IMG/VR virus record: IMGVR_UViG_2778261227_000011
Direction: 5' to 3' (one strand)
From: a virus
Taxonomy: Duplodnaviria; Heunggongvirae; Uroviricota; Caudoviricetes
DNA length: 4,796 nucleotides
The notes beneath the pieces were generated by a model. It saw only the letters and a program-made list of their open reading frames with translations. It searched no databases and was not told where the DNA came from. A program made the position numbers and the translations under genes. Below, piece after piece: positions 2,927 through 4,796 of this stretch (its first letter is position 1; every line of letters begins with the position of its first letter).

Positions 2927-4012
2927 ATGATTAATGAACGTACTGAAGCGACAGATGGGGTAGCAGATATGATTTCCACCAATACAAAATATTTAGTATG
3001 GAACAACAAAGGTGGTGTAGGAAAAACTTTTCTTACATATAATCTTGCCGTTGAGTTTGCTATATCTCATCCGGATCAAGATGTTGTGGTTATTGACTCA
3101 TGCCCTCAATCAAACGTTTCAGAAATTATTCTTGGTGGCAATGGTACCGGGGAAGAAAATCTAAATAAATTGCGAGACAGAAATGTTACAATCGCAGGTT
3201 ATATCAAGGAACGTTTTAGCAAATCTCCTTTGTCTCGTTTAGGAAATGAATCTTCTTACTTTGTACGGGCCCATGACGTTAATGCAAAAATGCCAGAGAA
3301 CTTATATATTCTTCCTGGTGATGTCGATCTTGATATCTGTTCACGCTTAATATCTCACATTGGCTCATCCCCAGTAAAAGAAGCATGGAAGAAAAGCCGA
3401 TCTTTGCTGGTAGATCTAATAGCATCTTTTGAAGCCGATAAAAACATTTCTGACAGAGCAAAAACATTTTTTATTGATTGTAATCCAAGTTTTGCCAGCT
3501 ACACAGAATTGGGAGTAGTCGCGGCAAATAGAATAATTATCCCTTGCACTGCCGATGCTGCATCAATTCGCGGAATAAAAAACCTTGTTAAACTTATTTA
3601 TGGAGTGTCTATTGACAAGTCAGAACAAGATGAAATGTTCTTAGATTTCAACAAAGAAGCAAAGCAAAACCTTATCGAACTACCTGAACTACACCTTTTC
3701 GTACAAAACCGCTCAAGAACTAATGAAAGTGATGCAGCAAAAGCATTCAAATCACATGCAGAAGAGATCAAAAGAATCACGGATGACCTGTTAAATACAC
3801 ATCCTCATCTGTTCACAAATGTGGCTACTTTCGAGAGGGTTCAAAATGTCAAAGATGGTAATACTCTTGCAGCAATAATAAACCATGAGGGATGCCCTTT
3901 AAGTAGGCTGCAGCATAAGAGTTACACTATCTATGGTATGGCGACCCAAGCTAATAGAGCACAAATTGAAGCACTAGAATCTGATGTTTCAACAGTAGTC
4001 AAGTGTCTGTAA
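2927..4012 (+). CDS. Orphan ParA/MinD-family (deviant Walker A) P-loop ATPase, 361 aa, on an AT-rich cargo island; function unknown.
   Basis: KGGVGKT deviant Walker A at residues 28-34 (nt 3008-3028); VVVIDSCPQSN (A-prime/switch region); LYILPGDVDLD; Walker B-like FFIDCNPS followed by RIIIPCTADAASIRGIKNL. An AGGA lies about 9 nt upstream of the ATG at 2927. An alternative start at Met15 (2969) would place Walker A at the more typical residue ~14. No parB-like ORF follows. Confidence 0.85.
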   Translation: MINERTEATDGVADMISTNTKYLVWNNKGGVGKTFLTYNLAVEFAISHPDQDVVVIDSCPQSNVSEIILGGNGTGEENLNKLRDRNVTIAGYIKERFSKSPLSRLGNESSYFVRAHDVNAKMPENLYILPGDVDLDICSRLISHIGSSPVKEAWKKSRSLLVDLIASFEADKNISDRAKTFFIDCNPSFASYTELGVVAANRIIIPCTADAASIRGIKNLVKLIYGVSIDKSEQDEMFLDFNKEAKQNLIELPELHLFVQNRSRTNESDAAKAFKSHAEEIKRITDDLLNTHPHLFTNVATFERVQNVKDGNTLAAIINHEGCPLSRLQHKSYTIYGMATQANRAQIEALESDVSTVVKCL

Positions 4013-4047: not shown

Positions 4048-4070
4048 GCCCGACCAACCGGTCGGGTTTT
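4048..4070 (+). terminator. Intrinsic terminator downstream of the ATPase gene.
   Basis: Stem cccgacc (4049-4055) pairs with ggtcggg (4060-4066), loop aacc, followed by TTTT (4067-4070). It lies 36 nt after the stop at 4012. Confidence 0.6.
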
Positions 4071-4300
4071 ATACTCGTAGCCTGCTTAATAACACTGTTC
4101 CTGACCCGTTGTATCCATAGTTCCCACTATTTTCCCCCAAATTATTACTATCTAATTAACCTAATAATTAAACCAAAACAAAAGACACTCGATATTTTCT
4201 ATATGTAACTACGCCACATCATCCCATCTGTGAAAAACCTTTTAATTCATAACGTTATATAGAAAACTAAAAATTAAATACACACTTCTACTTTTTGTTG

Positions 4301-4329
4301 TTGATTTTTGCTACTTTTAGTAGCATTAT
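4301..4329 (+). promoter_or_regulatory. pL-like early-left promoter: -35 TTGATT (4301-4306), 17-nt spacer containing an operator, -10 CATTAT (4324-4329).
   Basis: Reads TTGATT-tttg-CTACTTTTAGTAG-CATTAT, sharing the tttgcta...gtagcat core with the PR-like promoter on the other side of the immunity region. Confidence 0.45.
4311..4323. promoter_or_regulatory. Operator site (OL): ctacttttagtag, a 13-bp dyad with arms CTACT/AGTAG.
   Basis: Same family as the OR sites. A degenerate half-site (ctactttttgttg, 4288-4300) lies 23 bp upstream, the same spacing as the OR pair. Confidence 0.5.
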
Positions 4330-4339
4330 TATCTGAACA

Positions 4340-4356
4340 AACAACAGACTGTTGTT
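4340..4356. promoter_or_regulatory. 17-bp perfect palindrome aacaacag-a-ctgttgtt just downstream of the predicted pL start.
   Basis: 8-bp perfect arms around one central base. This is the same geometry and the same position relative to the promoter as the 1900-1916 palindrome at PR, but a different sequence. Confidence 0.3.
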
Positions 4357-4725
4357 AACGAAAGGTTGGTTGTAACACGGCGTATGGCACATGCGTCGTT
4401 AGCGGTCTGGGGACGTTAAAGGGGACAATCCACTCCTTGCTCGAGCAAACAAACCAGGTAGCCGGAATGTGCAAGTCAATGATGATGCTGATAAGACGCC
4501 TAACCAGCGTGGCGATTCGGTTTGACGCCTGGGAAGAGACCAGGGTGCAACGATGAGGGCATTTATGGAGCCGCGACAAAGTGTGGTGCCATAACTGGCT
4601 AAGTGCTCTCAGCGTTGTGGTAATCCGCGAAATGGCGCGGCGGTAAGTATGGCGGGGTTATCCTTACCCCATTAGTGGCACCGGGTTGTCAGGTTGACCA
4701 TACGCTTAAGTGACAACCCCACCAC

Positions 4726-4787
4726 AACAGCCACTGCTTTGGCGGTACCAGTTTGTACACTTGCTTCCGGCTGGTACCGCTCTTTTT
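4726..4787 (+). ncRNA. DicF-like sRNA candidate (prophage-encoded, processed from the early-left transcript); 5' end approximate.
   Basis: tttggcggtaccagtttgtac resembles my recollection of the E. coli DicF core tttggcggtatcagttttac, and it is followed by a hairpin and U-tract. The placement downstream of a repressor-controlled pL-like promoter after a leader with no long ORF mirrors the Qin dicA / ydfABC-dicF-dicB layout. The comparison is to a sequence recalled from memory, not a search. Confidence 0.35.
4741..4787 (+). terminator. Intrinsic terminator hairpin with U-tract; would also form the 3' end of the DicF-like RNA.
   Basis: Perfect 10-bp stem gcggtaccag (4742-4751) / ctggtaccgc (4771-4780), 19-nt loop, then tcttttt (4781-4787). 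There is no U-tract on the opposite strand. Confidence 0.6.
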
Positions 4788-4796
4788 ACAAAACAG

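Follow-up and report, generated by a model that had tools for sequence, protein, structure and literature searches.

The window analysed here, 4,796 nt in length, is the immunity region of a lambdoid prophage with an E. coli host, and one E. coli strain (C311) is 99.8% identical to it over positions 4200–4796. The minus strand carries a Rha/Ant-type open reading frame starting at 418, a YmfL-like gene and a cro-like gene (1628–1891). A C4 antisense RNA together with isrK was identified by Rfam at 476–664 on the same strand, just upstream of the Rha/Ant-type frame (83.6 bits for C4 antisense RNA and 67.9 bits for isrK, with a weak c4-a1b1 match, within 476–677). The matching RefSeq record starts the Rha/Ant-type coding sequence at 1024, so that it spans these RNA genes; that start has probably been set too far upstream. 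An operator-like palindrome, TGCTACTTAAAATAGCA (1922–1938), lies between cro and the plus-strand gene for a cI-type repressor (1941–2702), which is followed by a gene for a ParA-family ATPase (2927–4012) with its own terminator (4048–4067). The ParA-family gene occupies the position of rexAB, between cI and PL; its comparison with defence-system families (PADLOC) returned a single Drt5 match of 13.6 bits, taken as noise. The order then continues with a further operator-like palindrome, a leader and yfdP-yfdQ-yfdR, which are next in the full record, the start of yfdP being about 130 nt beyond the window end.

This further palindrome, TGCTACTTTTAGTAGCA (4309–4325, plus strand), is set in an AT-rich promoter zone and is similar to the palindrome between cro and cI; from its sequence it is presumed to be OL/PL, with the leader starting at about 4335–4345. 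Phage Ayreon has an annotated promoter at the equivalent relative place. A perfect palindrome of another type, AACAACAG-A-CTGTTGTT (4340–4356), occurs at the presumed leader start and is unlike the OL/OR-type palindrome. From about 4340 to 4796 the DNA is GC-rich and without a credible open reading frame, and some 590 nt of untranslated RNA precede yfdP in an operon that has no N-like gene. The leader fold is much more stable than that of shuffled sequences (z = -4.5). ARAGORN found no tRNA or tmRNA in the window, and the leader matched no Rfam family at E≤10 in searches of the whole window and of 4640–4796. The hairpin on which this analysis centres is located in this untranslated early-left operon leader, downstream of the operator-like palindrome, a position that the earlier note had rightly judged equivalent to that of dicF; on this arrangement the leader would be under repressor control.

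Upstream of the hairpin, the leader contains a conserved non-coding structured segment, here called module A (4377–4613, plus strand). Its copies measure about 190–240 nt and were located at 4377–4613 in the window, at 3001–3238 in O157 typing phage 9 (L004), which is of the phiV10 type, and at 4774–4956 in phage P1 (L127). Module A is 83% identical to the phiV10-type phages, where a tRNA-Arg directly follows it, and 78% identical to the phage P1 stretch between tRNA-Ile and ban. RNAalifold on four sequences predicted 56 pairs, nine of them with a compensatory change, and the search of the window gave module A no Rfam match.

Module B (4614–4728, plus strand) is a closed four-way-junction RNA domain composed of the closing stem P1 (4614–4621/4721–4728) and helices H1 (4625–4629/4636–4640), H2 (4654–4658/4666–4670) and H3 (4683–4691/4711–4719), all on the plus strand, with a candidate pseudoknot between 4647–4652 and 4698–4703 that has a single covarying position. 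The minimum free energy fold of 4608–4787 gives the same helices unaided. In an alignment (A2) of 19 sequences from eight genera plus phage P1, 92% of cells were paired compared with 32–54% in slid controls, and 12 pairs had changed on both sides compared with 3.2 in shuffles (0/500). Module B also occurs in the leader of the P1 ban operon and in six other enterobacterial genera. Despite its cloverleaf-like topology it is no recognisable tRNA, since ARAGORN finds none in the window. In the phiV10-type phages a tRNA-Arg (L004 3242–3403) stands in the place of module B, its acceptor strand in alignment with the closing-stem strand. After the tRNA come an arm and a hairpin of the DicF type (GGCGGUGAUGG...CUAUCACCGCC CUUUUU), an arrangement suggesting that the arm could be released by processing as for a tRNA. 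Among segments of module B within 4628–4637, 4649–4659 and 4674–4679, two are complementary to nt 43–57 of the small RNA RybB. The AGUGGC motif, also in module B, has its complement in the arm of the window itself (a rare variant of the junction). Both complementarities may be coincidence.

Directly 3' of module B lies a single-stranded arm of 12 nt, AGCCACUGCUUU (4729–4740, plus strand; that is, A-GCCACUGCUUU), for which folding of the 180-nt precursor predicts a mean probability of 0.65 of being unpaired. Cleavage at the best RNase E-type motif, GCUUU cut between GC and UUU (4737 and 4738), would fall inside this arm. The arm leads into a terminator-type hairpin (4741–4781, plus strand), the 13-bp stem of which (4741–4753/4769–4781, G-U pairs included) encloses a 15-nt loop, UGUACACUUGCUUCC, and which is followed by a CUUUUU tail (4782–4787, plus strand) forming the U tract of the terminator. 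The letters on which the earlier note relied are indeed present, with TTTGGCGGTACCAGTTT at 4738–4754 and tttggcggtaccagtttgtac at 4738–4758, as are its perfect 10-bp stem, in which GCGGTACCAG (4742–4751) pairs with CTGGTACCGC (4771–4780), and its U tract (C4782, then U4783–4787). Positions 4726–4790 fold at -22 kcal/mol (RNAfold, z = -3.5), with none of 200 shuffles as stable, and the 17-mer TTTGGCGGTAYCAGTTT, which is common to DicF, has a single occurrence in the window, whereas 200 dinucleotide shuffles contained none.

By sequence the hairpin has the make-up of an intrinsic terminator, a 13-bp GC-rich stem directly before CUUUUU on the transcribed strand, and it is probably a partial one: termination at 4787 may be weak, as the tail holds five U's only and the loop is large. 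A simple terminator scan does not list it because that scan accepts loops of up to 8 nt only. The CUUUUU tail is presumed to be an Hfq-binding 3' end. Stem positions 6–10 covary among alleles and genera (UACCA/UGGUA, GUAUC/GAUAC, UGAUC/GAUCA and CGUC/GACG), across E. coli, Citrobacter, Trabulsiella, Erwinia, Izhakiella, Serratia and Salmonella phage F1055, which identifies the hairpin as a conserved structural element. Immediately 3' of the terminator begins module F (4788–4796 in the window, plus strand), where folding of 9140–9725 of the full record (L001), read with its annotation, gave an almost perfectly paired stem of some 25 bp (ACAAAACAGAGAAGAGCAUCACC... with ...GGUGUUCUUCUCUGUUUUGU), which continues beyond the window (L001 9589–9680). 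This stem looks like an RNase III substrate and is analogous to the long stem that follows dicF, where RNase III cleavage produces the 72-nt DicF form (PMC5069750).

DicF is among the oldest known bacterial small RNAs. Its sequence was given correctly in the earlier note, K-12 dicF (L002 4383–4435) being UUUCUGGUGACGUUUGGCGGUAUCAGUUUUACUCCGUGACUGCUCUGCCGCCC, and the likeness to it proved to be homology and not chance: module B is about 93% identical to the approximately 115 nt immediately upstream of K-12 Qin dicF (L002 4251–4367), and TTTGGCGGTA[C/T]CAGTTT is common to both loci. The locus type, the GGCGG/CCGCC stem base, the CUUUUU tail and the long stem downstream are likewise shared. The 53-nt form of DicF has a 5' end made by RNase E, the 190-nt form starts at an RNase III cut about 137 nt upstream and the 72-nt form ends where RNase III has cut read-through RNA (PMC10448788, PMC5069750). 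As the 190-nt form starts at that upstream cut, module B corresponds, by its sequence, to the 5' body of the 190-nt precursor of DicF. This body of about 115 nt is a conserved, covarying RNA domain that is absent from Rfam.

Membership of the DicF family as defined was not supported. The Rfam DicF model (RF00039, gathering score 48 bits) gave no match at E≤10 on the 157 nt of 4640–4796 or on the whole window, whereas Qin dicF as positive control scored 76.7 bits. In the alignment to K-12 dicF the precursor body and the 5' arm of the stem have counterparts, whereas the 5' arm, the loop and the 3' arm of DicF do not. The 5' end of DicF pairs with xylR, and its 3' region with ftsZ and pykA (PMC5069750). 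In the alignment with Qin, most of the single-stranded 5' arm of DicF falls in a gap of 19 nt in the window, so the xylR-pairing arm UUUCUGGUGACG has no counterpart there and AGCCACUGCUUU stands in its place. As we read the sequences, ftsZ CGGAGAGAAACU would pair with DicF AGUUUUACUCCG, and of this segment CAGUUU alone is kept, ACUCCG being absent; after TTTGGCGGTA[C/T]CAGTTT the loop and 3' arm of the window differ from those of DicF yet still pair. With the start region of ftsZ, the best duplex of 18 nt reached -11.8 kcal/mol, compared with -16.3 kcal/mol for DicF, and was weaker than 96% of its own shuffles, on a crude windowed measure that did not separate real DicF from DicF shuffles either. 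Whole-RNA duplexfold against ftsZ was also computed and was uninformative, and the verdict that this is not DicF rests on the lost validated segment. A block of division mediated by ftsZ is not expected, because DicF's ftsZ-pairing loop and 3' arm have been replaced. The reservation in the earlier note that target specificity might differ was correct. The genes downstream also differ, yfdPQR following the window's hairpin and dicB following DicF, and in Qin module B lies in mid-operon, after ydfABC. The RNA ending at the window's hairpin would, on sequence comparison, be DicF in ancestry and position, and something else in identity and likely target.

The site after module B, when scanned in IMG/VR with the module B core, was mostly occupied by canonical DicF, together with at least five other alleles. 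All alleles at the dicF site have GGCGG...CCGCC stems and CUUUUU tails, whereas their arms and loops differ; the dicF site is polymorphic among prophages. Surveys of dicF so far counted only copies more than 99% identical (PMC5069750). Further copies came to light in Citrobacter, Trabulsiella, Erwinia, Izhakiella and Serratia when one genome per species was scanned, and a phage search added those of Salmonella phage F1055 and P1. The window's hairpin was found behind three different closed upstream domains, each ending ...ACCACAAC, and with two types of arm, the short AGCCACUGCUUU of the window and the long UUUAUGCUGUGUGUAGUCYU of SfV. About 61 IMG/VR copies, in which three different modules precede it, show the short arm unchanged. 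The hairpins of E. coli and Citrobacter have kept the stem but differ in the loop, and the Citrobacter arm, UCCCAUUGCUUU, differs from that of the window at 3 of 12 positions.

The hairpin with its 3' flank occurs in 1,573 of 5,426 complete E. coli genomes, and the arm–hairpin junction in 1,389 of the 5,426 (about 25%). The analysis shows the dicF site to be polymorphic, with an allele other than DicF that has gone unannotated in several functional phages and in some 25% of the complete genomes of E. coli; where the genomes carry any annotation at the window's allele it is a hypothetical protein and never an RNA. The allele is present in phages cdtI, Ayreon, 2H10 and mEp460, in PhiR phages and in Stx2c phages, of which mEp460, Ayreon, cdtI and Stx2c are functional; it is absent from the K-12 CPS-53 prophage. 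Literature searches of incomplete coverage, which leave novelty unproven, found no paper by sequence strings of the hairpin and module B, and nothing relevant on phage RNAs resembling RybB, RprA or RyhB.

Several of the sister alleles carry an arm that matches a host small RNA. The long arm is identical to RprA nt 60–77 over 14–18 nt in SfV, Izhakiella and Trabulsiella (11–18 nt when F1055 is included), and a full-text search with it returned RprA only. In SfV (L126 3482–3548) the RprA-identical arm, UUUAUGCUGUGUGUAGUCCU, stands before the window-type hairpin, and the RprA-type arm is kept in Izhakiella (L265), Trabulsiella (L262) and phage F1055 (L266) although their hairpins differ. Processed RprA (RprAproc) is the last 47 nt of RprA (PMC9262595), and, as in the window, it has a single-stranded arm directly 5' of a terminator; the window's arm, however, lacks GUGUGUAGUC and is not RprA-like. 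The Citrobacter arm suggests that the short arm arose from the long arm by a 10-nt deletion and a few substitutions. A second unit in the phiV10-type phages (L004, 3467–3506) consists of CAUUGCUUCCAGU and the terminator GCCCGGuucgCCGGGC-U7, and is identical to RyhB nt 49–61 over 13 nt, with a chance expectation of 0.0017. Two further matches, OmrA/B to allele V4 (9 nt) and RyhB to the window loop (8 nt), were at chance level and were dropped.

RybB (RF00110) is a sigma-E-dependent core small RNA that represses the mRNAs of outer-membrane proteins. Positions 4730–4740 of the window's arm (GCCACUGCUUU) are identical to RybB nt 1–11, an exact 11-mer from the first position of RybB. Against a panel of published small RNA sequences (PMC7311995), an 11-mer match to a 12-nt arm is expected by chance at 8e-4; across the whole window 11-mers common to the panel are not rare (3 seen, 4.2 expected), and the case for RybB rests on the position of the arm, the fact that RybB's own seed is matched and the pattern among the sister alleles. 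Compensatory C2G mutants have validated nine RybB target sites, where the uninterrupted helix that starts at nt 1 measures 4–10 bp (PMC7311995), and these helices fall wholly inside the 11 nt that RybB has in common with the arm. The rest of the RNA is unrelated, the RybB covariance model giving no match at E≤10 on 4640–4796, and the window has a phage promoter whereas RybB has a sigma-E promoter. Furthermore, the RybB seed is at a primary 5' end, whereas the window's arm is internal, with about 390 nt of leader before it and module B directly upstream.

For the window's allele, the homology, the structure with its covariation, the distribution and the loss of the DicF pairing segments are observations. 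The reading that we favour, and consider probable, is that the hairpin is both a partial terminator of the leader and the 3' scaffold of a small RNA of this prophage leader, divergent within the DicF group and with changed targets. Once the immunity repressor leaves the PL operator, transcription would proceed through module A, module B, the 12-nt arm and the hairpin; part of the transcripts would stop at CUUUUU (4787), while the remainder would pass the 25-bp stem into yfdP-yfdQ-yfdR. RNase III and RNase E would trim the precursor, by analogy with dicF, yielding a long form of about 175 nt (module B, arm and hairpin) and a short form of about 50–60 nt. Termination, processing, stability, Hfq binding and a trans-acting function are what we infer for this RNA. 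In favour of this reading are the homology to the dicF locus on either side of the arm, the covarying precursor body, the stem and tail common to the alleles of this site, the stable hairpin and predicted accessible arm, the wide and intact occurrence of the allele, also in functional phages, the long stem downstream, and the STnc100 score of the SfV allele given below. Against it weigh the shortness of the arm, with an RNase E-type motif inside, the possibly weak termination, the reduced look of the allele beside relatives in other genera and its absence from K-12. The targets of such a small RNA must differ from those of DicF, because the DicF 5' arm and the ftsZ-pairing loop have been lost.

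The main rival to the small RNA is that the hairpin is a terminator or attenuator only, limiting PL read-through into yfdPQR and releasing an inert RNA, the identity with RybB being a coincidence of the deletion in a longer arm. The panel's 11-mers occur across the window at their expected frequency, the Citrobacter arm looks like an RprA-type arm minus GUGUGUAGUC, and the loop has diverged from Citrobacter while the stem has been kept, all of which would suit a bare terminator; moreover, the window's allele, compared with relatives in other genera, lacks 10 nt of a conserved arm and a loop segment with a Shine-Dalgarno sequence plus a start codon, and from these sequences could be a reduced remnant surviving as a terminator only. 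Against this stand three independent arms directly 5' of terminators that match core small RNA seeds (RprA, 14–18 nt; RyhB, 13 nt; RybB, 11 nt) and an arm that is unchanged in about 61 copies behind three upstream modules, and we regard a terminator-only role as rather unlikely. Modules A and B could also together act in cis as an antitermination or anti-Rho element like put of HK022, with the hairpin as the first terminator to be overcome, a reading compatible with the small RNA that we favour. The lack of an N-like gene, the roughly 590 untranslated nt before yfdP, the stability of the leader fold (z = -4.5) and the fact that both modules, in the window as in the P1 ban operon, come just after promoters under repressor control agree with it. 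However, put RNAs, at about 70 nt and with two stem-loops (PMC9378689), are unlike modules A and B, blastn at word size 7 found chance matches of 10–13 nt only in the HK022 PL/PR region, and the module B of Qin is in mid-operon, so we hold a put-type element to be improbable.

A small protein-coding gene running from about 4709 to just before yfdP, with the hairpin inside it and a start in the loop in some relatives, would account for the frame open from GTG at 4709 to a TGA before yfdP and for the frameshifted 'hypothetical protein' that PGAP places over the hairpin in one genome. The homologous hairpin has a large loop in Erwinia, Trabulsiella, Izhakiella, Serratia and F1055 (L264, L262, L265, L254 and L266 1640–1700, respectively); in this loop lie a UCUUCC segment paired to an AGGAG Shine-Dalgarno sequence and an ATG or GTG start (MF(Y/C)R...), and the reading frame crosses the 3' arm and the U tract; these large-loop hairpins may couple translation to termination. 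The loop in the window, however, has neither Shine-Dalgarno sequence nor ATG, and beyond the hairpin the frame is not conserved among the relatives, differing or stopping early (Izhakiella, Trabulsiella). The substitutions between E. coli and Citrobacter show, by inspection, no concentration at third codon positions, no Pfam or NCBIfam family matches the frame that passes through the hairpin, and the seemingly conserved peptide corresponds to the two strands of the 25-bp RNA stem; a coding gene here is very improbable. That the window encodes DicF proper, blocking cell division by pairing with ftsZ mRNA, would fit the shared TTTGGCGGTA(C/T)CAGTTT, genomic position and precursor body, but is extremely improbable given that the Rfam DicF model finds no match at E≤10 where the control scores 76.7 bits, that the ftsZ duplex is weaker by the crude measure above (-11.8 vs -16.3 kcal/mol; weaker than 96% of shuffles), and that ACUCCG is absent, the validated ftsZ-pairing region of DicF being in its 3' part and loop (PMC5069750).

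Beyond the divergent DicF-group small RNA that we favour, a broader reading is possible, which we hold only tentatively. Here the dicF-type terminator and an arm bearing a host small RNA seed would form an exchangeable cassette, in which the window would be a RybB mimic, the sister alleles mimics of processed RprA and the phiV10-type unit a mimic of RyhB, with module B or the tRNA as the processing handle that frees the arm. In lambdoid and P1-type phages such a cassette would occupy the place behind the structured leader, its arms having been copied from, or having converged on, the seeds. If so, the RybB mimic would repress the ompC, ompA, tsx, fadL and ompW mRNAs upon induction or infection. 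Many outer-membrane protein mRNAs of this kind encode phage receptors. If the arm acts like that of RybB, prophages would reprogram the host envelope by copying host regulatory seeds, and seed copying would offer them a simple way to exclude superinfection or remodel the envelope.

Other known or candidate RNAs show partial likeness to the window. The SfV allele matches the Salmonella small RNA family STnc100 (RF02076) with 39.5 bits (E = 2.4e-7), below the 47-bit gathering threshold, and DicF with 15.7 bits, and consists of a closed domain, an arm and the hairpin of the window; the window itself has module B in place of the STnc100-type domain, and the STnc100 model found no match in it. The PasD/Pas small RNAs of EPEC lie near Q and the late genes and not in an early-left leader (preprint 10.64898/2026.05.13.724894); identity with PasA-D was dropped, as these belong to another prophage region and that preprint is without DicF, RybB or RprA. 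The 'dicF-like region' of the P1 ban operon leader likewise combines a module B homolog with an arm and a terminator and lies directly after a promoter under repressor control, but its hairpin (GCCCAUC.../...GGUGGGC) and arm are different and tRNA genes follow it. Phage P1 (L127, approximately 4960–4985) also carries AUUUUCUGGUGA, nearly identical to the DicF 5' arm, after module A and just upstream of ban. In phage vB_Apl-pPE4 (L267, approximately 1600–1770) another allele is tandemly duplicated, with the arm CAUGUUGAUUACCUUUU and the hairpin GGCGGGUAUC.../...GAUACCCGCC.
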